From: a virus
Length of the DNA stretch: 64,000 nucleotides
Virus record (IMG/VR): IMGVR_UViG_3300042878_001565
Span: 27,180-91,179 of that record
Reading direction: 5' to 3' (one strand)
Positions 29,223 through 63,983 of the stretch are shown here, in pieces. Each line of letters opens with the position of its first letter. The first letter of the stretch is position 1. Both the position numbers and the translations under genes were made by a program. A model generated the notes under the pieces. That model was not told the origin of the DNA. It saw only the letters and a program-made list of their open reading frames with translations, and made no database searches.

Positions 29223-29702
29223 TTAAAAATTGTAACTCAATGTTAAACACCGTTGCCAATGTTTTCTGAAATACTTACTTGCTGTTCTTTTAAATTCAAG
29301 CACCGGAGTAAATGAAAATAAGTTATTATTCTTTATTACATTTCGAACTGAACCAGTGGAATAAACAATTCTCATGTAGTGTCCATCTGTTTCCCAATTC
29401 TTATGATATACTGTTATCCCAACTTCTTTAGAACGCTTGTAATCTACTAATTTCTTTTTTGGTTTACCTGCATTATTAATACAGATCATACCTATGTTTT
29501 CTGGAAGCACTACACCATAAGTATTATTCATAGTTTCTGCTACCATATTTTTATTAAATGTTCTTGCAATGTTTATCAAATCATGCATGGTAATGTTTGC
29601 ATATTCCGGATGTAATTTTTTAAATTCCTTCAATTCTGCATACTCAATTACTTTTCCTTTCTGTTCTGTTACCCTTGCTTTCTTTAAATCTGGTATTTGC
29701 AT
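29223..29702 (-). CDS. IHF/HU-like DNA-binding protein
   Basis: GVVLPENIGMICI...VDYKRSK...YHKNWETDGH...FSFTP; an IHF-like gene in this position is typical of crAss-like tail modules. Confidence 0.65.
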   Translation of the reverse strand: MQIPDLKKARVTEQKGKVIEYAELKEFKKLHPEYANITMHDLINIARTFNKNMVAETMNNTYGVVLPENIGMICINNAGKPKKKLVDYKRSKEVGITVYHKNWETDGHYMRIVYSTGSVRNVIKNNNLFSFTPVLEFKRTASKYFRKHWQRCLTLSYNF

Positions 29703-29748
29703 AACTTATAATATAAGAATTTTAAGTCAAAAATACAAATTAAAATGC

Positions 29749-29777
29749 AAAAAGAAACCCTCTATTCCTAGAGGGTT
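29749..29777 (-). terminator. Rho-independent terminator
   Basis: Minus strand AACCCTCTA-GGAA-TAGAGGGTT followed by TCTTTTT. Confidence 0.75.
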
Positions 29778-29795
29778 CAAAATACAAAGAGTAAA

Positions 29796-29861
29796 AATTG
29801 GCCCCAGATTATCCCAGGACCAATTCTAGTCAGCCACATAAACCAACCTCTCTGTGACAGC
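29796..29861 (-). ncRNA. Candidate structured small RNA / 3' UTR element (two hairpins)
   Basis: GC-enriched intergenic DNA. Minus-strand RNA folds GUCACA/UGUGGC around the loop GAGAGGUUGGUUUA, then a 12-bp stem AAUUGGUCCUGG/CUGGGGCCAAUU. G-U pairs favour the minus strand. Confidence 0.45.
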
Positions 29862-29863
29862 GT

Positions 29864-31648
29864 TTAATATTTTATAATATATCTCATTGTAATACTTTTT
29901 TGTCTGTTATCTCCTGATGATGTACCTGTTGCAGTACCAGTAACTGGTCCAGCACCAGTTCCTGAAATAGTACCGCTAGCAGGAGTAGGAGAACCAGTGC
30001 CACCAGAAGGTGCAGTATTACCAGCAAAATATTCTTTTTCGTGAATGTGAGTTGTTGGAGTAATAAATAAATCAAATTCTCCTGGATTATCAACATCTTC
30101 ATAATCAGGATTATCTACCCAATCTTTATCCATTGATGTATAACTACCTTCACCTACACCATCACTTCTAAAAATATTATGCTTGTGAGAACCAGAAGCA
30201 ATAATATTTGCAGTAGATCCATCAGTTGATGCTAAAGAGTGAACGTGACTTGGAAGATTGGCAACACCAACATTTACAGATGCTGTACCTGTTAAAGTAA
30301 CAGCAGCAGTACCAGTAATAGTTCCGGTAATAGTTCCAACAATAGCATTATCTCCAACTTCAGTTCCAGTATTTGCAGCTGTTCCACCATAAGGAATTTT
30401 ATCAATTAAATTTGGAACCGAAAATGTATTTATGGGCACTGGATTTAAATCGTATTCAGTACCAATTACATCCCATAAATCACCATAAGTAATTTTAGAA
30501 ACTACTTGACCATCGCATAGCAACCATCCTATTGGAATAGCAACACCTATGCCACCAGCCCATGGAATAACACCACCTACAGGAAATAAACCTGCACCTG
30601 CAGCTTGAGCTGTTGAATTACCACCACCTGTATTTGGTATAGCATCTTGTCCTGGAACATTATATGATACACTAACTTCTATACCAGCAGCCGGAATGCT
30701 TCCATTTCCATGTATTAAAGTTACAACATATATATGGGTATTACCTGAAACTCCAAATCCATCAACTTTATAAATACCAAAGTTTGCAGAATTTTGAGCA
30801 TCAACTAATTGTATAATACTATTTTTTACAATTCCTACCACCCATTGTATCCCACCATTTATAGCACCTATAGTACCACCATATCCATTTATTGTAGTAT
30901 GACTAAGTGCTATTTGTGTAACGCCAGCATAAGTTGTTGCAGCACTAACACCAACCGTACCGGCAACCGCACCGTCACCTTTCTTATAGAGAACTGAATT
31001 AGCACCCATGTTTCCTTGAATACCCAATGAGCCAGCTGCACCAGCTAAACCAGGACTTCCCGGATCTCCTTTAGGAAGAGTAAAGTTTAATGCATACGGA
31101 TTGGTTCCAGTAATTGCTACTGCAGGTGTTGTTCCTTGTGTGACAACACCAATAGTTATTGTAGGAGCAGGTCCAATTTGACCTGGTGCACCATTTTGTC
31201 CGGGATTTCCTGGTTGACCTTGTTGACCAGGATTTCCTTGAGGGCCAGCTGGACCTGGAGTTCCACTTCCAACACCAGCTGGACCTGGAGGGCCTGAAGG
31301 TCCTTGAAAACCACGAGGTCCTCTTAATCCTGTTGCTCCACCAGCTCCTGCACCACCACCGGCTCCAGTACCACCATTAGCTCCACCTGCTCCATTAGCA
31401 CCGTTTCCACCAGCTCCGCCATTAGCACCGTTTCCACCAACACCGCCATTATTACCATTAGTTCCGTTTCCACCAAAACCGTTTCCACCAAAACCATTAT
31501 TTCCATTTGAGCCATTGCTTCCATTTGAACCACCGCCAAAACCGCTGTTTCCATTTCCACCAAGACTATTGCTTCCGTTTGAATTATTTAAAGAACCGTT
31601 GTTTTGACAAGATCCTTTACAAGTTTTAACTTTACATTTTATACACAT
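29864..31648 (-). CDS. Tail fibre protein: Cys N-terminus, Gly/Asn-rich repeat, collagen repeat, tail collar domain
   Basis: GGNG repeats, a (GxY)n run, FPVGGVIPWAG...GWLLCDGQ...LWDVIG...FSVPNL collar motif, HxH motifs and a C-terminal MRYIIKY. Confidence 0.85.
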   Translation of the reverse strand: MCIKCKVKTCKGSCQNNGSLNNSNGSNSLGGNGNSGFGGGSNGSNGSNGNNGFGGNGFGGNGTNGNNGGVGGNGANGGAGGNGANGAGGANGGTGAGGGAGAGGATGLRGPRGFQGPSGPPGPAGVGSGTPGPAGPQGNPGQQGQPGNPGQNGAPGQIGPAPTITIGVVTQGTTPAVAITGTNPYALNFTLPKGDPGSPGLAGAAGSLGIQGNMGANSVLYKKGDGAVAGTVGVSAATTYAGVTQIALSHTTINGYGGTIGAINGGIQWVVGIVKNSIIQLVDAQNSANFGIYKVDGFGVSGNTHIYVVTLIHGNGSIPAAGIEVSVSYNVPGQDAIPNTGGGNSTAQAAGAGLFPVGGVIPWAGGIGVAIPIGWLLCDGQVVSKITYGDLWDVIGTEYDLNPVPINTFSVPNLIDKIPYGGTAANTGTEVGDNAIVGTITGTITGTAAVTLTGTASVNVGVANLPSHVHSLASTDGSTANIIASGSHKHNIFRSDGVGEGSYTSMDKDWVDNPDYEDVDNPGEFDLFITPTTHIHEKEYFAGNTAPSGGTGSPTPASGTISGTGAGPVTGTATGTSSGDNRQKSITMRYIIKY

Positions 31649-38496: not shown

Positions 38497-39204
38497 TTAA
38501 GAACATGATTTATCATTATAACTATTTGCTACAGCCCAAGAATTAAAAGTATTTGCGCTGGCAATTATAATTCCACAATCAAAACATTTAACCACTATAC
38601 CTAATGTATCAAATAATGCTGTGAATATTGCACTCCATTCTGTTTCAGTTATACCTGAATATTTTGCTGCTATAGATGTTACCAATGTTCCTATAGAAGA
38701 AGCTTCTCTTATTGTGTTAAATTCAATTAATCCCATTGCTGAAAACAATGCAGGATTATTTATCATTTGTCCAAGAATTGCTACATCAGATGTAAAACTG
38801 GTATTACAACAATCTGGTTTAATTTTAATATTGCTGCTATATATTGCATGTGTAGCTTTATCTATATAAATATTTAAACAACATGGTGCTTTACATGAAA
38901 CTGACGTTGTATTAAATTTAAAAGTTACTGCTAATGCATTAAATTTAGCTAATCCACCTAAAAAATAAAATCCATATTTATCATTACAGTCAGGACAACA
39001 AATACCAGCATCATTTGATGCAATGATACCTGTATTTAAAAGCGTTGTTGCTTTTGCAATAAAATTACTAATGTCATGATTAACATCAGAATTATAAATT
39101 TGATCTATCAAATACTCCAATGGATGTTTACAAACAACACAAGAACTTTGAGTTACTGTAGTGTTGCAACATACTGGATTATTTATATTAATTGAATTTC
39201 CCAT
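38497..39204 (-). CDS. Cys-rich hypothetical structural protein, paralog B
   Basis: Colinear similarity to 37770-38486. Confidence 0.6.
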   Translation of the reverse strand: MGNSININNPVCCNTTVTQSSCVVCKHPLEYLIDQIYNSDVNHDISNFIAKATTLLNTGIIASNDAGICCPDCNDKYGFYFLGGLAKFNALAVTFKFNTTSVSCKAPCCLNIYIDKATHAIYSSNIKIKPDCCNTSFTSDVAILGQMINNPALFSAMGLIEFNTIREASSIGTLVTSIAAKYSGITETEWSAIFTALFDTLGIVVKCFDCGIIIASANTFNSWAVANSYNDKSCS

Positions 39205-39725
39205 TATCCTGTAATTAATGCATCAACTTTTGTTTGTAAAGATAAAATTTGAACTTGCATGTTAGCTATAGTTTGATTTTGATTTTGAAGCGTTCTATAA
39301 AACTCACACACCTTTAATCCAATTAAACTAACGTAGTTGTTAATTTGTGTAACAGTTCCACCAACTTCATTTTCAAAACAACCAGCTACTACAATTTCAC
39401 AATCAGGACAACCTGAAGCAACAGTTCCAGTTGATGTAGTAGATGCACCGCCAGTTTTAATTATACATAACTCATCTAAAATTGCTTGAATTAAATCTAT
39501 AAATGTTTTCATATCACAAGTATCTACAATACAAGAAGCGTCATAGTTGTTAACATCTGTGTATGTTAATAACAAGCAAATCTTTTCTGCAAATTGTGCT
39601 AATACGTCACTAATAGTATCCCCAGTACATAAATGTAAAAAAGGAATATCAGGTCCTTGCCATACTACACAATTACTTGATGTAGTGACGCATCCTGTTG
39701 GTTTTGTATTTGTCGGTCTTCCCAT
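39204..39725 (-). CDS. Cys-rich coiled-coil fibre/adaptor protein
   Basis: SSNCVVWQGPDIP...C.GD.ISDV module and a C-terminal heptad coiled coil. Confidence 0.55.
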   Translation of the reverse strand: MGRPTNTKPTGCVTTSSNCVVWQGPDIPFLHLCTGDTISDVLAQFAEKICLLLTYTDVNNYDASCIVDTCDMKTFIDLIQAILDELCIIKTGGASTTSTGTVASGCPDCEIVVAGCFENEVGGTVTQINNYVSLIGLKVCEFYRTLQNQNQTIANMQVQILSLQTKVDALITG

Positions 39726-40572: not shown

Positions 40573-41133
40573 TTAAAATATTTTACATGAAAAAGCATCT
40601 AATAATTTTTTAGCATAGTTAAATATAACCATACCTTTTTCTGCATCCAAGCAATATTCAACACTTGCTTTTGCTGCATCTATGTATCCACTAATACGCA
40701 TTAAGTCTTTAAACTTTGCATCTGTTTCCGCACCTGGTTCACAAGCACCTAATTGTAATTTACATAACTCTGCTTTCAGTTGTTTTTTGATTGCAGTTAT
40801 GCGTAAATGATTATACTCTACGTATAATTGTTCGTTTGGTGATATAGAATATTTTATTACATAAACACCATCAGGTAGTTCATTAAATAATACACCGCAT
40901 TGTCCGCTTTGAAGTTTTAATTCACACGCATTCAAATTAAAGATGAATCCCTTTTCTACTACTATAGGAACAGTGGTAGAATTAAATTCCACACAATCTT
41001 TAAATCCAGGAACTAACACTTGAAGTGTAGGACAGACGTATGGCATAATCGGATCATACCAACTTGTATCTTCAATTCGAAGGATGCAATCCGTCTGAAT
41101 ATCAGGAATATTTAAACTTAATTTGTTTGTCAT
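40573..41133 (-). CDS. Putative tail hub/structural protein (start corrected to MTNKLS)
   Basis: LPDGVYVIKYSISPN motif; the upstream 14 codons of the tracked ORF overlap a terminator. Confidence 0.55.
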   Translation of the reverse strand: MTNKLSLNIPDIQTDCILRIEDTSWYDPIMPYVCPTLQVLVPGFKDCVEFNSTTVPIVVEKGFIFNLNACELKLQSGQCGVLFNELPDGVYVIKYSISPNEQLYVEYNHLRITAIKKQLKAELCKLQLGACEPGAETDAKFKDLMRISGYIDAAKASVEYCLDAEKGMVIFNYAKKLLDAFSCKIF

Positions 41134-41145
41134 AATGTCAAAGTT

Positions 41146-41186
41146 AAAAAAAAAGGAGAATAGAGAAACCTCCATCCTCCTTTTTA
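41146..41186 (-). terminator. Rho-independent terminator
   Basis: AAGGAGGATGGAG-GTTT-CTCTATTCTCCTT followed by a long T tract on the minus strand. Confidence 0.8.
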
Positions 41187-43971: not shown

Positions 43972-44967
43972 TTATTTAGCCCATAATGATTCAACTCTGG
44001 CCATCAATTTGTCCAGGATGTCTTCATTCAATGGATTGTTTAAAAATTCTAAAACATCTGCACTATTTCTTCCAAGCATTATGTTTTCAGTTTCTTCATA
44101 TAAAACACCATCCGCTTTAACGATAATGTATTTATGGAAAGATGCATCTTTAATAATTGCTTTTAATTTAAGTACATCATGTGACATTTCTGCATGTTCA
44201 ATAAACAATGAAGCACAACGCTTTTTATCGCTATCGTATGACAATCCTTGTATGTATGAATCCAAGTTAGAATAAACTGTATCAGGCAATGTTCTATTGC
44301 TATACTGAATACTATCTTTAACAATGTTTTTAGCAATGTAATATAGTTTTCTTGGATCTTCATCAGACAAAGTATTCAATAAAGCCAATGCTTTATTTTT
44401 CAATTTAACTGAAGAAACTTTGTTAGCCATAGTATCGATTTGTCTATCTAAATACCATTTCTTTTTATTTCTTTTACAATCTTCCCAGCTTGTTGCAACT
44501 AATGAAAAGCCACCGTTCTCAATACCTTTGATGATAAGTAAATGGTCAAGGTTATTTACAGGATCCAAATAAACATCATCGTTTCCTAATTTCAATAATA
44601 CCTTACTCCAAATTTCAGAATTGTTTGGTCCAAACATTTCTACTTTACTCCAAAAGTCTTTGTCATCAACATCAATGTGATTAAACGCTCTTTCTCTTTC
44701 AAGCATAGCAACGGTTTCTCTAATGTCTTTAATAACAGCTTTCTTTTTAGCTTCATCAGTGATTTGTTTAATCTCTGGTGCAAACTCATACAATCCGTTC
44801 AAATAACGAATCTTACCGTTTTGTTCAATTGCTGCAAGTGGTTCTACTTGAAACGTATTTGGGAAAACTACATAGTTATAATTTTCTAATCCCATATTCT
44901 CTACATCTGGATCGCTAAATGGTTTGATAGCGATTTTTCCTAATGCTCCTAAATTTTTTGCACTCAT
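43972..44967 (-). CDS. Conserved crAss-like capsid-module protein downstream of the MCP
   Basis: RYLNGL.E...FWS....LG...VYLDP...LGRN...V.EFLNNP.N motifs; synteny. Confidence 0.65.
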   Translation of the reverse strand: MSAKNLGALGKIAIKPFSDPDVENMGLENYNYVVFPNTFQVEPLAAIEQNGKIRYLNGLYEFAPEIKQITDEAKKKAVIKDIRETVAMLERERAFNHIDVDDKDFWSKVEMFGPNNSEIWSKVLLKLGNDDVYLDPVNNLDHLLIIKGIENGGFSLVATSWEDCKRNKKKWYLDRQIDTMANKVSSVKLKNKALALLNTLSDEDPRKLYYIAKNIVKDSIQYSNRTLPDTVYSNLDSYIQGLSYDSDKKRCASLFIEHAEMSHDVLKLKAIIKDASFHKYIIVKADGVLYEETENIMLGRNSADVLEFLNNPLNEDILDKLMARVESLWAK

Positions 44968-44992
44968 GTTCGTTGGTTTATTTTTGTACTGA

Positions 44993-45000
44993 CAAATTTA
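44993..45000 (-). promoter_or_regulatory. Bacteroidota sigma-A -7 element (TAAATTTG)
   Basis: Matches TAnnTTTG about 25 nt upstream of the ATG at 44967, just past a terminator. Confidence 0.55.
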
Positions 45001-47009: not shown

Positions 47010-48281
47010 TTATCTTGCAAAAATGTTTCTTGCACTTTTCTTCAACGTACTACGTTGATTACTTCCTTCTTTGGTATCAGTTACTGAAGATGAACCTTGT
47101 CTTGAAGCTTCTTCTGTCTTTAACATTCTTACCGTTTTTGCATTGGCATCTTTGCTACCTATTTGTTTTATGTTGCTTCGGTAATCATCTGGATCTGCTA
47201 ACAACCATAGTGCTTCTGCAACTAATGATGGATTTGCATTTTTTCCAAACTGGTGTTGCTCTAACAAATATCCTAAAGCATTTGTAGGTTTCCCTTCTGC
47301 AGTTTGATATTTACTTGAATCAACTAAACCGTAGTACAACATGTTTTGAATTTTAGAATTTAATGGAATTCCATTAAGCTCTGTAGTGTTCAGTGTTTTG
47401 TATATTGTATTCGTGTACTCTTTTTGAGTTTCCTCTTTTCTAATTTTTGATGCTTGTTGATCTTTCAATCTTTTTTCAACAACCTCTGCTTGTTTTGAAT
47501 CTAACTTCGGTTTGTACCTTTCAGCAAATTTTTGAAGATCACCTCTATCCTTTAAAAGATTAATTTCATCTTCAATTTCTTCTGTTGTGTCAAAAGTTTG
47601 AGAAGCTTGATACCATTGTCTGATAATATCTTCTTGATCTTTTTCAACTGTAACATCTAAATCAAAAGTTTCTTGAACCTTTGCAAGTTGTGCAAAAATT
47701 GATTTTGTATCCTGGCCACCATTTAATGCATAATGTACAGCCGCTTGAACTTCTTCAGGTAATTGTTTGAATAGTTCAACTGGTGCATTCTGTGCAGCAC
47801 TGGAAACCTGTGAAGAAATGTTTGCTTGAATCAATTCCTTAAAATCAGCTAACGTATAATCTTCTAAAGATTTATCATCATCAAATGCTTGCAGCGTACC
47901 ATCTTCGATAAGACTTTTTGCTGCTTCAATCATTGCATCTTTGCTTAACGTAGGTCTTCCACCTTTGTTAATAGGAGCTTCATCTTCATCTTCTTCATCA
48001 TCAGATAAATTAGAATCTACAGCATTTGCAACTGCATCTTTTAATTGATCATTACTCGCATCTTTTAATGCTTCTGGTGTAGCACTATCAATGTCATTGT
48101 CAAGGAACGATGTGTCAACATTGCCTGAATTTAAAACCGAAGGTTTGGTACTTGTACCAGTTACAATCGATGCGGAATCAATTCCTAATAATTCATCCAA
48201 GTTATCAAAATCAACTTCCTCTACCGTTGTATTGGAAGCTTTTGCAGCTACATCAGCTGCTGCTTTTTCTTCTTCTGTCAT
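47010..48281 (-). CDS. Acidic scaffold-like protein
   Basis: Very acidic, helical 423-aa protein between portal and MCP. Confidence 0.65.
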   Translation of the reverse strand: MTEEEKAAADVAAKASNTTVEEVDFDNLDELLGIDSASIVTGTSTKPSVLNSGNVDTSFLDNDIDSATPEALKDASNDQLKDAVANAVDSNLSDDEEDEDEAPINKGGRPTLSKDAMIEAAKSLIEDGTLQAFDDDKSLEDYTLADFKELIQANISSQVSSAAQNAPVELFKQLPEEVQAAVHYALNGGQDTKSIFAQLAKVQETFDLDVTVEKDQEDIIRQWYQASQTFDTTEEIEDEINLLKDRGDLQKFAERYKPKLDSKQAEVVEKRLKDQQASKIRKEETQKEYTNTIYKTLNTTELNGIPLNSKIQNMLYYGLVDSSKYQTAEGKPTNALGYLLEQHQFGKNANPSLVAEALWLLADPDDYRSNIKQIGSKDANAKTVRMLKTEEASRQGSSSVTDTKEGSNQRSTLKKSARNIFAR

Positions 48282-48410
48282 AATGTGTTGGTTTTATTAC
48301 TGACTATAATTAATATACGCAAAAATATTGGTTTTTAAATATAATATGTTTAACTATTTTTAAGTACCATTTAGTTTTGAAACATACTATAGTTAAAACC
48401 TAACAAATCA

Positions 48411-55034: not shown

Positions 55035-55338
55035 CTTCTCTTAATTTTTGTTGTAACATATATTCTTCCTCAAAGGTAAGGATTGCTTTCCATCTTGGTT
55101 CTTCCAATGGACAAGTTGCTGACAACGATCTCCATTTTAATTTCATTGAACATCCGCAATCACCACAACAAGGGCCGGTTCCAGGTACTGCACATTTTCC
55201 ATCAAATAATATACACCCTTCACAAAACTTTTTTCTTTCTGCTGCAATTTCTTCTATGTGATCAGTTTTGAATATGTTATTCTTGATCCCTTCCAGAATC
55301 TGCCCTTTTGCTTTCCAAATTTTTATTACGCTTTTCAT
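55021..55338 (-). CDS. Cys-rich putative metal-binding protein
   Basis: R..FCEGC...C......CCGDCGCSMKLK.R....CP...W. Confidence 0.6.
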   Translation of the reverse strand: MKSVIKIWKAKGQILEGIKNNIFKTDHIEEIAAERKKFCEGCILFDGKCAVPGTGPCCGDCGCSMKLKWRSLSATCPLEEPRWKAILTFEEEYMLQQKLREDVPE

Positions 55339-55672
55339 ACAATGGTTCGTAGTATTTATTACAATTTTCTAATGCTTCTTCTTTTTGAGTTAGTTGTTCC
55401 TGCGTGAACTTAAACCTAATAACTTTTTTAAAGTCTTCCTGTTCATTACTTGACAAGAGTTTTTTAAGCCCTGTAATGTCACGTTTTAATTTAACTCGAC
55501 TCAATCTCAATGTTCCAAGTCCATGAAGAAAGATTGTAGTATGCTTCATTGCTTCAATCTTTTTTCTTACAGTAGAGTAGTAAAAATCTACTACGTCTTG
55601 TGTTAGACTTTCAGATACCCCAAGGTCATCTGCAGTTTTCTTTATTAATGTTCTACCCTTTGTTGGTTTCAA
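55277..55672 (-). CDS. IHF/HU-like DNA-binding protein (TTG start)
   Basis: LIKKTADDLGVSE....VVDFYY..V...I.......IFLHGLGTL, an HU/IHF N-terminal pattern. Confidence 0.6.
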   Translation of the reverse strand: MKPTKGRTLIKKTADDLGVSESLTQDVVDFYYSTVRKKIEAMKHTTIFLHGLGTLRLSRVKLKRDITGLKKLLSSNEQEDFKKVIRFKFTQEQLTQKEEALENCNKYYEPLYEKRNKNLESKRADSGRDQE

Positions 55673-56026: not shown

Positions 56027-56287
56027 CTATTCAGCTTTTTTTTCTGGTTCATCACTTTCAGCAGCTGCTTCATTTTCTTGAAGTTGCATGTTAATTTGCA
56101 TGAACTCAATGCGTGATTTGAATCCATCTAAACGCGCTATTTCAATACGCGATTTACATTCTTCATACTCTGTTTGTAAACGTAGTAATGGTAACTGATC
56201 TTCAAAGAAAGCAATCTGCTTTGCTTTAAATTCTGCAAGTTGTTCTGGTGTGTAACTTACTTCTTTTTGGTTGGAATTTTCTGACAT
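56027..56287 (-). CDS. Hypothetical coiled-coil protein
   Basis: ORF preceded by a TAnnTTTG element. Confidence 0.55.
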   Translation of the reverse strand: MSENSNQKEVSYTPEQLAEFKAKQIAFFEDQLPLLRLQTEYEECKSRIEIARLDGFKSRIEFMQINMQLQENEAAAESDEPEKKAE

Positions 56288-58311: not shown

Positions 58312-59967
58312 TTATATTGAATAAACACCAAATTTAGATAATTCAAATTGCCCTGTATTTGTTACTGAAGTGACAGCCATACATCTACTAGCGAAAAAGT
58401 TTAACCCTTGTGAAGTTAAAGGTAAATTTGTTGAGATTGTACCTTGTGCAATTGCCCCAGTTTCTTTATTTATCACCTCATATTTTACATCTGTAGACAT
58501 AGGTTCGTTGTATATCTGAATGCTATATACAGTTGTTGAAGCAGCCCCTGCTGTTCTATTTGCTGGAAAACCAACTCCTAAATCAACCTTTGTTGCAGTA
58601 CCAGAAGCATCATTATGAAACACTTGTAAATTAGCATCACCATTTTCAGAACCTACACCGATTATATTAGTTAATACATTAACTAAAGTACCTGAAACAC
58701 CACCGTAACCTAAGTCACCAGTTTGACCACCCAATCCATAGAATTGTTGACAACCAGCAGCGTAAGCAGTATCTGCAATATTAAAATCACATACATATCT
58801 AAAACCACCCTCTATATACCACAATAAAGCTGAACCTCTATTTCCTGTATATCTTCCTCCAGATACAGTCGAAGCATAATATCTAAGTCTGACTTGTTTT
58901 GTCGCAAAGCTGGTAGAGGCAACTGATTGAGCCAGTGCTGCACCGGTAATTGACATTGTTACACCACCTTCTGCAACAACTGTTGTGGTATTGTTATTAA
59001 TTGTAATACCTCTATATATTTCATGAGGACTAAAGTTTGGAATAAACTCTGTTGTTCCGCCACCTGTATATTGAGGAATATTTAATGTGCTACCAACTAA
59101 TGTAGCTGCACCTGATGTTCCTGTTGTTGTTAATGTATCAATAGTTCCCGGTGTAAATCCTAACCAACCAGCTACTGTTTTGAATTCATGCAATCCTGTT
59201 ATTGAATTATATCCAAGCAATGTGTTATTTGCTCTTCCTACTACAGATACATCGTGAAGCTCATCAATCTCAAATCCATTTTGTGGTTTTACAAAAATTT
59301 CTCCAACTGTAGCACTTACTCTTGTTACAACACCAATGAATACAAGATGAGCAGGTGCAACTGGTTTAGTTGTTAAACCATAATGCCAGAAAATTAGATT
59401 GCCATTAGTTCCAAGCCATACAGCATCCCCATCAGTAGCTGTAGAAGTATTTAATCCAGCTAACAAACCTTCTGTAATTACTTCTCCTTGATAGTTTGCT
59501 GCACCTGATGCAGTAACTAATCCTAATGTTTTTGATGAAGTAGCTTCTGCACTATTGTCTGCTTTAGAAACAAGCATATTAGTACCACTAGCACCGCTTA
59601 CATAAACAGCTTGTCCAATAGTTAATGCTTCTGCATATTTTACAGAATGTTTAACATTTGCTGTAGGAATACTTGAAGGTTTGTTTAAAATTTGAGCATC
59701 TCCAGAAGTTGCATTCCAATCCGGATTAACATTTACTTCAGCACCTACAGCAATTCCTGCAAGTTTTGTTTTTTCTGCAGGAAGCATAAGCCCTGCATTT
59801 GTAGCATCTGCAGCTAATATTGTAGCATCAGTTCCTGAATCAGAAACAACTGTACCATTGCTCACTCCTGGAACAAAAGTTAAATTGGTAGAACCACCAC
59901 CGCCACCACCTGTTGATGTTTCGTAGTAATCTAGTTCACCAGTGTCTGGGTTAATTTTCCAAGGCAT
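58312..59967 (-). CDS. Fibre/virion surface protein outside the main tail block
   Basis: ATNAGLM...EKTKLAGIA.GAEVNV.PDWNA..GDAQILNKP fibre repeats; GQAVYVSG...KTLGLV...QNGFEIDELHDV domain; C-terminal beta-rich domain. Confidence 0.65.
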   Translation of the reverse strand: MPWKINPDTGELDYYETSTGGGGGGSTNLTFVPGVSNGTVVSDSGTDATILAADATNAGLMLPAEKTKLAGIAVGAEVNVNPDWNATSGDAQILNKPSSIPTANVKHSVKYAEALTIGQAVYVSGASGTNMLVSKADNSAEATSSKTLGLVTASGAANYQGEVITEGLLAGLNTSTATDGDAVWLGTNGNLIFWHYGLTTKPVAPAHLVFIGVVTRVSATVGEIFVKPQNGFEIDELHDVSVVGRANNTLLGYNSITGLHEFKTVAGWLGFTPGTIDTLTTTGTSGAATLVGSTLNIPQYTGGGTTEFIPNFSPHEIYRGITINNNTTTVVAEGGVTMSITGAALAQSVASTSFATKQVRLRYYASTVSGGRYTGNRGSALLWYIEGGFRYVCDFNIADTAYAAGCQQFYGLGGQTGDLGYGGVSGTLVNVLTNIIGVGSENGDANLQVFHNDASGTATKVDLGVGFPANRTAGAASTTVYSIQIYNEPMSTDVKYEVINKETGAIAQGTISTNLPLTSQGLNFFASRCMAVTSVTNTGQFELSKFGVYSI

Positions 59968-59969
59968 AA

Positions 59970-60215
59970 TTACGAAAGTATTATTGATGTAATACGTGAT
60001 CCTTCAACTGCAGGGTTTTCATAACTGATAGTTTGTGTTACAACTTCAATTCCTTTTGGTGTTGAACCTGTATGAACAATCACAGTAATGTTTTGTGTTA
60101 TTCCGCTATAAGTAAATTCTTTTTTATAATCTAAAGCATTTTTAATGCGTCCTAGTTTTGATGAACCACCGTTAATCAACTGAACCATTCTGTTTTGATA
60201 ATCTTCGTTTGTCAT
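59970..60215 (-). CDS. Hypothetical protein (start corrected to MTNEDY)
   Basis: The upstream 22 codons of the tracked ORF overlap the promoter-like motif; the remaining 81 aa are beta-rich. Confidence 0.5.
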   Translation of the reverse strand: MTNEDYQNRMVQLINGGSSKLGRIKNALDYKKEFTYSGITQNITVIVHTGSTPKGIEVVTQTISYENPAVEGSRITSIILS

Positions 60216-62522: not shown

Positions 62523-62759
62523 TCAATGTCTGTTTTTAGCTCGTTTGTTATAATTGAATACCTGTTTGCAAAAAGGAACTACATCCGATTTATTTGCATT
62601 GTGTTTGAACTCTTCTGGATTATCATACCTGCGAACAATGTGTTCGGAAATATGTTTTTTATACACTGGAGTTAATTGGTCAAGTCCAATTCCCATACAC
62701 CAAGATGAAATATACATTTTCATTTTGCACTGGTTCTTAAAAATGGTAATTATTCTCAT
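62523..62759 (-). CDS. Hypothetical protein
   Basis: ORF tiles the operon with an ATGA overlap. Confidence 0.45.
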   Translation of the reverse strand: MRIITIFKNQCKMKMYISSWCMGIGLDQLTPVYKKHISEHIVRRYDNPEEFKHNANKSDVVPFCKQVFNYNKRAKNRH

Positions 62760-62959
62760 ATAAATTTTCTTTTTGCTTTAGCGTGTTTCACTCTTTTCTT
62801 TTTTGGTGTTGCTCGCACCCTTGCCTTTTGCATATCACGTTTCATCTTATAATCCTGTTTCATCATTTCATTTCTTCTGCGTACCAGATCTTCGTTATGG
62901 ATACTACTATAGGAAGAACAACCTGTAATCAAAATGATTATAATATAAAGAACTTTCAT
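62756..62959 (-). CDS. Small putative lipoprotein with a basic C-terminus
   Basis: MK + hydrophobic stretch + lipobox-like ITG-C followed by SS. Confidence 0.55.
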   Translation of the reverse strand: MKVLYIIIILITGCSSYSSIHNEDLVRRRNEMMKQDYKMKRDMQKARVRATPKKKRVKHAKAKRKFI

Positions 62960-62961
62960 GC

Positions 62962-63450
62962 TTATCTTTTTTCAACTAATTCATCAAAATAAATCAAGCA
63001 ATCTTTTGCAATAGTCTTGCGTTTGCGTGCAAGATGTGGATTCAACATTATGTGTTTAAATTCTACACCATCTTTCACACCATTAATATAATACACAACA
63101 CCACCTTTGTACAACCTCTTCATAAAATCAGCATACTTGTTACGTGTGTACTTCAACTCTTCCATCAATGTCGTATCTGTGTGAGGAACCTTGCGATCAA
63201 CATACAAAATATTGTAACTACCATTGGTCATATTGGCCATCTTCAAGATGCGCCCATAATCAACAGGCGTGAAATGTTCCAGGATATATATTAATGCTTT
63301 GGAATCGATAACTACATATTCATCACTGTGTACAATCACCAAGTCTTCATTGATAATATTCACTGTAGTTCCTTCAGGAAGAACCTCGCCAGTAGAAGTA
63401 TCCACCAGTGTTCCATTGCTCTTTACCTTATTAACTATTGGTTTAATCAT
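62962..63450 (-). CDS. RepL-like winged-HTH DNA-binding protein (start corrected to MIKPIV)
   Basis: VDTSTGEV...TL.EEL.Y.R.K...FMKRL.K.GV...IMLNP pattern; the extra 48 codons of the tracked ORF are palindromic repeats and promoter. Confidence 0.6.
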   Translation of the reverse strand: MIKPIVNKVKSNGTLVDTSTGEVLPEGTTVNIINEDLVIVHSDEYVVIDSKALIYILEHFTPVDYGRILKMANMTNGSYNILYVDRKVPHTDTTLMEELKYTRNKYADFMKRLYKGGVVYYINGVKDGVEFKHIMLNPHLARKRKTIAKDCLIYFDELVEKR

Positions 63451-63454
63451 GGTA

Positions 63455-63462
63455 CAAATATA
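63455..63462 (-). promoter_or_regulatory. Bacteroidota -7 element TATATTTG, probably producing a leaderless mRNA
   Basis: TAnnTTTG lies 4 nt upstream of the ATG at 63450. Confidence 0.65.
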
Positions 63463-63480
63463 ATCAATTTTTGTATGCTG

Positions 63481-63585
63481 TGCACCTTTTTTGGTGCAAT
63501 GATGAAATTTATTTGCACCTTTTTTGGTGCAGGCATCAACGTATTCATTAGGTTGTAGAAGAGAGTCTGCACCTTTTTGGGTGCA
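63481..63585. repeat. Three 18-bp inverted repeats TGCACC-N6-GGTGCA (operator/iteron-like)
   Basis: Copies at 63481-63498, 63514-63531 and 63568-63585; T6 spacers, with one T>G change in the third. Confidence 0.85.
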
Positions 63586-63983
63586 AGTAATCATTACAAT
63601 TCTGTAGCAATCAACCAGTTAGAAAAATGCTCTATATTAGTATATTCCAGAGGGTAATTCCAAAAAAAATTTTGGGTAATTTGAAAATCGGAGATGTAAG
63701 TGTTTGTGGGGGTCCTTCTATATAAAAACCCCCGGCTACTTCGTAGCTTGGGTGTACCCCCTATGTTTGCTAGCAGCTTGAATAAATTCAAGTACCATAC
63801 CTACAATTCTTCCTGGCGGAAGAACACCACCGCACACAGTGTGCATCAGTACATCCAACACACCACACCCAACCAGGGCACAGCCTGACTCTCATCCTAC
63901 CGAGGACCAGGGCGGAGCCACCGACCTACATATATATGTAATTATCTTACTCCAAAGACTAAAGTCTTTTAAAAATATATATT

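Follow-up and report, generated by a model that had tools for sequence, protein, structure and literature searches.

We identified, in an uncultured crAss-like phage, a conserved RNA hairpin that is probably a phage riboregulator of head-protein synthesis; no expression data are available for it. The structure of the hairpin, its conservation among relatives, the complementarity of its loop to the leaders of two head genes and the conservation of these target sites were all observed. They are best explained by an antisense RNA that is borne in a 3' UTR and pairs with translation-initiation regions. We consider this explanation likely, and within it the accumulation of the RNA, its pairing in vivo and the sign of its effect are inferred.

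Genome context and probable host

The window, that is the whole stretch of DNA analysed here, comprises 64,000 nucleotides and corresponds to bases 27180-91179 of a 91,179-nt virus record in IMG/VR. All long open reading frames (ORFs) of the window are carried by the minus strand, and gene starts were taken from ATG-only ORF calls made in the present analysis. The gene layout is that of a crAss-like phage, with terminase, portal, a 423-aa gene, MCP, a 331-aa gene and tail genes, followed by a collar-fibre-like gene (29864-31648) and then by virion proteins and giant proteins. The MCP was assigned by its match to the PHROG major head protein (E = 9e-28). Pfam and PHROGs gave no family name for the target proteins described below, and the word 'scaffold' for the 423-aa gene is a guess from its position only.

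Among cultured phages, Flavobacterium phage FpV4 and Cellulophaga phages come nearest at the protein level (~24-30% identity); their hosts are Flavobacterium and Cellulophaga. No close phage was found in GenBank, where MCP identity was at most 28%. The best GenBank MCP match, which covers 99% of the length at 28% identity, is Leptolyngbya phage Lbo-JY46 (PP438436.1); this phage is cyanobacterial and not a Bacteroidota phage, and it also matches the 221-aa virion protein.

An SD-like sequence was found in only 2 of the 74 genes of the window phage. Several genes, including all three target genes, have upstream a TAnnTTTG box, which is the -7 box of Bacteroidota promoters (PMC7366714). A Bacteroidota host fits because of these few SD-like sequences and of the TAnnTTTG boxes, and the host of the phage appears on such signals to be an SD-independent member of the Bacteroidota. 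Translation initiation in Bacteroidetes is not SD-dependent and is tuned by mRNA structure; it depends on an unstructured stretch upstream of the AUG, A/C-rich unstructured leaders being favourable (PMC6847099). One of the only two SD-like genes is 40573-41175, with the start AGGAGGATG. A strong 16-bp terminator-like hairpin with a T run (41150-41185 of the window) overlaps the start of this gene.

A hairpin and two terminators in the gap after the collar-fibre-like gene

The collar-fibre-like gene 29864-31648 is separated from the next gene, 29223-29702, which encodes a 159-aa protein, by a gap of 161 nt (29703-29863). The gap holds the following features.

29833..29858, minus strand: conserved RNA hairpin, with 5' arm GUCACA (29858-29853) and 3' arm UGUGGC (29838-29833)
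29852-29839, minus strand: hairpin loop of 14 nt, GAGAGGUUGGUUUA, which contains GUUGGUUU and whose core UUGGUU is invariant in relatives
29826..29833, minus strand: single-stranded linker CUGACUAG between hairpin and terminator, complementary to UAGUCAG of both target leaders
29789..29827, minus strand: first intrinsic terminator, a 14-15-bp stem (29827-29794) with G-U pairs, then a U run
29749..29778, minus strand: second intrinsic terminator, a 10-bp stem (29778-29755), then a U run
29728..29735, minus strand: promoter box TATTTTTG, a Bacteroidota-type -7 box (TAnnTTTG) that serves the 159-aa gene

The original prediction had described a 6-bp stem on the minus strand exposing a loop at 29839-29852, and this is what we found, GUCACA pairing with UGUGGC around GAGAGGUUGGUUUA. 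It had also placed a 12-bp hairpin with G-U pairs and a terminator in a gap of 160 nt. Both are present, but the gap measures 161 nt, and the stem has 14-15 bp and is itself a terminator. The GC enrichment claimed for the gap is true of its core (48% at 29794-29862) but not of the gap as a whole (34%, against 32.7% for the genome).

The fold of 29790-29866 has a z score of -3.2 versus shuffles. The stems 29827-29794 and 29778-29755 meet the criteria of intrinsic terminators, whereas the hairpin 29858-29833 fails them since it is followed by the linker CUGACUAG and not by a U run. The sequence of the first terminator is replaced in relatives, yet its stem and U run are always retained. The second terminator is found only in the closest relatives and is missing in locus L016. 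The linker CUGACUAG is kept in all alignment rows of the window clade and is confined to this clade, and relatives show an equivalent promoter box, either TATATTTG or TATTTTTG. The minimum free energy (MFE) structure of the whole 164-nt gap contained an outer helix, ACAGAGAG/CUCUUUGU, that would sequester the loop. The 3' partner of this helix is missing in relatives such as L016 and L006, and we rejected the helix because it is not conserved, whereas the hairpin 29858-29833 is.

Screening of the whole window against Rfam 15 gave no match at gathering thresholds. The best permissive match, PyrR, scored 25.7 bits where 54 are required (E = 0.11), no better than expected by chance, and ARAGORN found 0 tRNA or tmRNA genes in the window. 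The leader of the 159-aa gene (29703-29727, and its equivalents in L018-L084) contains a conserved box, TAGTATATTA or TTATATTATA, located about 10-15 nt before the ATG. The TATATTA seen in this box recurs in the leaders of the 423-aa gene.

Conservation and covariation of the hairpin in relatives

Homologs of the downstream 159-aa protein with 34-99% identity were found, and a profile-derived scan of IMG/VR gave 247 related loci confirmed by tblastn, of which 80 were listed and 79 of these were usable. The hairpin was present at the same place in all 79 usable loci among the 80 listed of the 247. It is retained down to ~32-36% identity of the neighbouring protein, with unrelated upstream genes. 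In each of the 79 usable loci the stem-loop comes 3-25 nt past a stop codon, a short linker connects it to a strong terminator, and a TAnnTTTG promoter follows. Absence of the loop from relatives had been set beforehand as an outcome that would refute the original prediction, and the loop is kept in every relative (79/79 usable loci).

These loci provided 49 distinct sequences in which the loop TTGGTT (UUGGUU in RNA) is invariant. The stem occurs in many versions, including GUCACA/UGUGGC, GUUGCAG/CUGUAAC, GUUACAG/CUGUGAC, GUGAUGG/CUAUCAC and GUAGAG/CUCUAC, and 90.5% of the stem cells of this 49-sequence set are paired on the named structure. One stem position takes six pair types (UG, CG, UA, GC, AU and GU). 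The stem has 36 double-change cells compared with 11.2 +/- 2.8 after shuffling, a number matched in 0 of 500 shuffles, and its covariation score is 0.50, slid controls reaching at most 0.15. Many of the stem changes run through G-U, which argues for pairing in RNA rather than in DNA.

A simple stem search around each RTTGGTT was too permissive in these AT-rich genomes, and a covariance model was therefore used instead. This model (CM R1) matches the window at 29826-29864 with E = 3e-4 and has exactly one match per genome in 7 genomes, and an exact-pattern scan found 56 further contigs with one match each. CM R1 gave no match on FpV4, and in the region of this nearest cultured relative that was examined (1-30 kb) both the hairpin and the leader motif are absent. 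The 'phages' collection, searched with the DNA and with the 159-aa protein, gave no match, and the element is absent from any cultured relative among the cultured and GenBank phages searched. Since the relatives are phylogenetically linked, the P values given in this work overstate independence.

The gene that precedes the hairpin is unrelated between relatives (L005-L084): it is collar-fibre-like in some of them and encodes Cys-ending or other proteins elsewhere. Conservation starts a few bases past the stop codon of this variable gene. Judged from the arrangement of these loci, the hairpin-terminator unit marks a fixed border of a hypervariable tail-fibre cassette and may be a recombination boundary. 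One subclade has an extra ~393-aa gene with its own promoter between the hairpin-terminator unit and the 159-aa gene (58889-60070 in G006 and 62657-63838 in G008, loci L104 and L111; also in L034, L045-L057 and L068-L083). In this clade the hairpin can moreover help to locate the hypervariable tail-fibre locus, whose conserved right-hand border it marks.

A complementary motif in the leaders of two head genes

The hairpin loop is complementary to AAACCAAC. The window contains 9 copies of this motif versus 3.9 expected, a count equalled or exceeded in 4 of 100 shuffles, and a start lies no more than 25 nt from 2 of the 6 sense copies (binomial P about 0.002). Taken alone, the statistics within the window are modest. 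The comparison was extended to six complete or near-complete relatives and to parts of eight more genomes. In seven genomes, 14 of the 68 copies are located at most 25 nt upstream of a start in sense orientation, versus 0.56 expected (P about 6e-16). A lack of motif enrichment at starts over background, which had also been set as a refuting outcome, is ruled out by this result.

The original prediction had listed four places for AAACCAAC as pairing sites and the motif is present at all four. The two sites that flank the MCP gene are conserved; the two others, at 55662 and 39697, are not. The target sites retained after this comparison, with a possible third one, are as follows.

48275..48307, minus strand: target 1, initiation region of the 423-aa gene 47010-48281, which lies between the portal and MCP genes; GUCAG at 48304-48300, AAACCAAC at 48294-48287 (5 nt before the AUG), AUG at 48281-48279
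44960..44994, minus strand: target 2, initiation region of the 331-aa gene 43972-44967, which lies after the MCP gene; GUCAG at 44993-44989, (U)AAACCAAC at 44980-44972 (4 nt before the AUG), AUG at 44967-44965
56267..56272, minus strand: possible target 3, AACCAA in codons 5-7 of the 86-aa gene 56027-56287, weak and degenerate in the window

AACCAA was found in 25 of 25 leaders of the orthologs of the two genes flanking the MCP gene, taken from 14 genomes. In the seven full genomes the distance to the ATG was measured for 14 leaders: the proximal AACCAA, always in sense, stops 2-8 nt short of the ATG in 13 of them and 12 nt short of it in the post-MCP leader of G006. The motif of target 1 is present in the 423-aa ortholog of all genomes checked. 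In every genome of three clades, AAACCAAC itself is located 1-7 nt upstream of the ATG, in sense, in the orthologs of both the 423-aa and the 331-aa genes, and the two remaining clades have in the same leaders AAACCAAU or sometimes AAACCAAA. The target genes are the first cistron after the promoter in each mRNA.

The small ~88-aa gene is probably a third target. In its orthologs AAACCAA(C/U/A) is found at -13 or in codons 2-5 (codons 2-7 for the orthogroup as a whole), and because the motif is kept in different reading frames the constraint is on the nucleotides. The duplex energy of this site in the window is unexceptional (rank 65/74 with the loop alone and 18/74 with the whole module). In G002, the leader of a 109-aa gene (72669-72998, locus L100) has AAACCAACAACCUCUC 15 nt before the ATG. 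This sequence matches GUUGGUUU together with the clade-specific GAGAGG part of the loop, with -17.8 kcal/mol and rank 1/73, and the 109-aa gene may be a clade-specific extra target.

Two candidate sites were rejected as probably coincidental. One is AAACCAAC at 55662..55669 (minus strand), after the TTG start of the HU/IHF-like ORF 55277-55672. It covers codons K-P-T, and relatives keep Met-Lys/Asn-Pro but not the nucleotides (AAGCCAAC, AAACCGAC, AACCCAAA and others), the motif being lost through synonymous changes. The other is AAACCAAC at 39697..39704 (minus strand), 21 nt into 39204-39725 (codons 8-10). There the motif occurs in 2 of the 6 genomes that have the orthogroup and is not retained beyond the closest clade. 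The HU/IHF-like ORF has a weak match to Pfam Bac_DNA_binding (E = 0.045), uses TTG as start codon both in the window and in 4 of 6 relatives, and overlaps the end of the preceding gene by ~20 nt.

Predicted pairing between the hairpin and its targets

To rank the genes as pairing partners, the loop alone was folded against positions -30 to +15 of every gene. The two genes flanking the MCP gene were both in the top 5 in G000, G001, G002 and G003, both in the top 9 in G004 and G008, and at ranks 13 and 15 in G006. The energies predicted for the loop only are modest (-7 to -12 kcal/mol). When the whole 41-nt module was used instead, these two genes took ranks 1 and 2 among the 74, 73 and 127 genes of the three window-clade genomes, with z scores of -2.7 to -4.0. 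The duplex predicted for target 1 has 28 bp (3 of them G-U), extends from -26 to +7 and reaches -30.2 kcal/mol (rank 1/74), and the one predicted for target 2 has 21 bp and reaches -24.6 kcal/mol (rank 2/74). The net gain predicted after opening of the hairpin is -20 and -12.5 kcal/mol for these two window-clade targets.

In the predicted pairing of the window clade, the linker CUGACUAG engages UAGUCAG in both leaders, the loop engages (AU)AAACCAAC, and, for the 423-aa gene, UGUCA of the 5' arm engages AUGACA at the start. The two pairing blocks are separated by a variable 5 to 11 nt. GUCAG is found at most 40 nt upstream of the start in only 2-3 genes per genome of this clade, and 6 of these 8 occurrences are the two targets. 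CUGAC in the RNA and GUCAG in both leaders are seen in the window clade only, and the other clades have neither. The module of the window clade (29826-29862) also reads as if the leader of the 423-aa gene (48275-48307) had been copied imperfectly in inverted orientation, with 28 of ~34 positions pairing. This suggests that the extended antisense region arose by inverted duplication or by convergent extension from the loop seed.

We then followed one partner pair, in which the base just 5' of UUGGUU faces the one just 3' of AACCAA. Three clades have G-C at this pair, the G006/G013 lineage has A-U, and in the G008 clade the loop G faces U or, occasionally, A; a loop G facing A is seen for some targets of both the G006 and the G008 clades. 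As far as the distribution of these states allows us to judge, the G-to-A loop change is a single lineage event. Swapping the loops between clades did not significantly weaken the predicted pairing (rank 34/120 permutations). The original prediction had proposed to test whether the loop and the leader motif are both conserved or co-vary. Both are conserved, but covariation between them is suggestive only, because the loop swap was not significant and the G-C/G-U/A-U series amounts to one event. Since the loop swap was not significant, the evidence outside the window clade consists of two invariant complementary cores of 7-8 nt and not of true covariation. On comparative grounds, the appearance of a second block in both partners of one clade is a stronger argument than the single-pair series.

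Proposed mode of action

The hairpin starts 3-25 nt past the stop codon of non-homologous upstream genes and is followed by a terminator, and no promoter conserved among relatives was found upstream of it. With no conserved promoter and with unrelated upstream genes, the hairpin is to be regarded as a 3'-UTR element, possibly processed. The phage sRNA of the original prediction is supported as a conserved element with complementary target sites but not as a free-standing sRNA gene, and the purpose given for it there, to set the stoichiometry of assembly proteins, is an inference. The element has three of the features expected of trans-acting sRNAs derived from 3' UTRs: an accessible seed (an invariant loop core in a covarying stem, 49 sequences), conserved target sites (25/25 leaders, 14 genomes) and a shared terminator without a promoter of its own. 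We rejected a cis-antisense RNA of the lambda OOP or P22 sar type, as the hairpin shares its strand with the targets and is 15-18 kb distant from them. Terminators are located between the targets and the hairpin, and action is for this reason most likely in trans.

We propose that the gap would form the 3' end of the tail-fibre transcript, with the conserved stem-loop followed by an intrinsic terminator, and that the active form would be either the 3' UTR of the mRNA or a processed, terminator-protected fragment of ~70 nt. The exposed loop (core UUGGUUU) would base-pair in trans with AAACCAA(C/U) of short 5' leaders, those of the 423-aa pre-MCP and the 331-aa post-MCP genes, each of which comes first in a head-gene transcript. 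This pairing would be lengthened in the window clade by the linker CUGACUAG and the 5' stem arm, giving an imperfect duplex of ~30 nt that reaches from about -27 to +7 and includes the start codon. The initiation region would be occluded, and translation of the head genes would be repressed as late tail-fibre transcripts accumulate. We infer that repression is likelier than activation because initiation needs an unstructured region and the duplex covers the start codon. The hairpin RNA could also be an 'anti-leader' adaptor supplied in trans and not a repressor. A separate stable RNA would then recruit or position the 30S subunit or protect the 5' end, an interaction of the SD/anti-SD kind being moved from the rRNA to a phage RNA. 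We consider such an adaptor very unlikely, and it is not excluded because the evidence leaves the sign of regulation unfixed.

Alternative explanations

Complementarity between transcripts of the same strand is by definition an inverted repeat in DNA, and a phage or host DNA-binding protein, for example a late-gene regulator, could recognise AAACCAA(C) both at the head promoters and where the tail-fibre operon ends; one site in two orientations would then be all that the 'complementarity' reflects. The position of the three target genes just downstream of TAnnTTTG boxes and a core that is invariant and not covarying would both suit such a site. However, the leader motif keeps its distance to the ATG (2-8 nt) and not to the promoter box (14-36 nt), it is always in sense orientation in the leaders, and intergenic copies in four genomes are 12 in sense and 2 in antisense. 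The tail-fibre copy is always in the loop of a stem that covaries via G-U, which duplex DNA does not need, and the 5-11 nt between the two blocks of the window clade would be awkward for a rigid composite protein site. Moreover, leaders of the G008 clade have AAACCAAT while the hairpin has the complement of AAACCAAC, a combination that RNA accommodates as a G-U pair, whereas as DNA the two sites differ. A DNA site is for us quite unlikely. A hairpin with a merely structural role at the 3' end (a stabiliser, an RNase barrier, or a protein-binding or termination-efficiency hairpin) is also conceivable, the likeness to the leaders being a historical by-product, for example of an inverted leader duplication, without trans pairing today. 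Indeed, a stop codon and a terminator always enclose the hairpin, which lies at the border where the hypervariable tail-fibre locus meets conserved sequence, and the module of the window clade does resemble an imperfect inverted copy of the leader at the scaffold position. A decaying by-product would nevertheless not keep an invariant loop core of 6-7 nt and a leader core down to 63% MCP identity, and here stems, terminators and surrounding leaders turn over while the loop and leader cores stay invariant. The second complementary block, which arose in both partners of one clade, also speaks against a purely structural role, which we regard as unlikely.

The position of the leader motif, which ends at -2 to -8 and thus takes the SD position in genomes nearly devoid of SD sequences, could mean that AAACCAA is an initiation signal read by the host ribosome or a host factor, either by rRNA pairing or as an A/C-rich enhancer. 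The hairpin loop would in that case be a mimic or decoy of this partner, or unrelated to it; no host rRNA data are available. Such a signal would be in keeping with head genes that are likely highly expressed, and A/C-rich unstructured leaders do favour initiation in Bacteroidetes (PMC6847099). It is difficult to reconcile with a motif that is carried by only 2-5 genes per genome, that is not found in the MCP gene itself and that is inside the ORF in the third orthogroup, and it leaves the clade-specific second block and the pairing with the start codon unexplained. We find it rather improbable, and antisense pairing from the 3' UTR remains the explanation that we prefer.

Significance and comparison with known systems

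No regulatory RNA family for crAss-like phages or Crassvirales was found in Rfam 15 or in literature searches, and to our knowledge very few regulatory RNAs have been characterised for any Bacteroidota phage. The element described here has a clear anatomy, with a covarying stem, an invariant loop and a terminator, and is present in single copy together with a conserved head regulon of two to three genes. Its predicted pairing site is at the SD position in a lineage that does not use SD sequences. It offers a concrete case in which post-transcriptional timing can be put to the test in environmental phages, here a large and uncultured group, and a natural system in which to study how initiation regions are recognised by SD-blind ribosomes and how they are blocked.

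The c4 antisense RNA of phages P1 and P7 (immI) and the sar RNA of P22 block translation of phage mRNAs by pairing of exposed loops or segments with the ribosome-binding region. Processing of a longer transcript yields c4, which controls an antirepressor; the sites that c4 pairs with belong to the transcript it comes from and lie a short way off, not directly opposite it. sar is a true cis-antisense RNA. The hairpin is likewise a phage RNA with an exposed loop complementary to the initiation region of phage mRNAs, pairing being predicted in our case. Unlike those of c4 and sar, its targets are structural head genes, 15-18 kb off, on the same strand, and two to three in number and unlinked. CopA, RNA I and Sok are kissing-loop antisense RNAs with U-turn (YUNR) loops, which are cis-encoded and fully complementary to their targets. 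The phage hairpin resembles them in that a stable stem presents a pairing loop, the UUGG of which fits YUNR (a U-turn is only compatible with the sequence), but it is neither cis-encoded nor fully complementary.

The 3'-UTR-derived sRNAs CpxQ and SroC have their regulatory seed within the 3' UTR and share the terminator of the mRNA, and in icaR of Staphylococcus aureus a 3'-UTR motif pairs with the ribosome-binding site (3'UTR-5'UTR interaction). As in these RNAs, the phage seed is embedded in a 3' UTR with the terminator of the mRNA. Unlike icaR, the phage hairpin probably acts in trans and not within one molecule, and the organism and the family differ.

UTR-derived sRNAs exist in Bacteroides, and GibS of Bacteroides thetaiotaomicron represses by pairing across start codons (PMC7366714). 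The phage hairpin shares with GibS and other trans-acting sRNAs of B. thetaiotaomicron the SD-less Bacteroidota context, a conserved single-stranded seed for the start-codon region of few mRNAs, extended seeds in AT-rich transcripts, and a Rho-independent terminator as 3' end (PMC7366714). It differs from GibS in being encoded by a phage and not by the chromosome, without any sequence or Rfam relationship. Finally, the seed of GibS is in an unstructured 5' end, whereas a hairpin loop and a linker present that of the phage RNA, which is located in a 3' UTR and has no promoter of its own.
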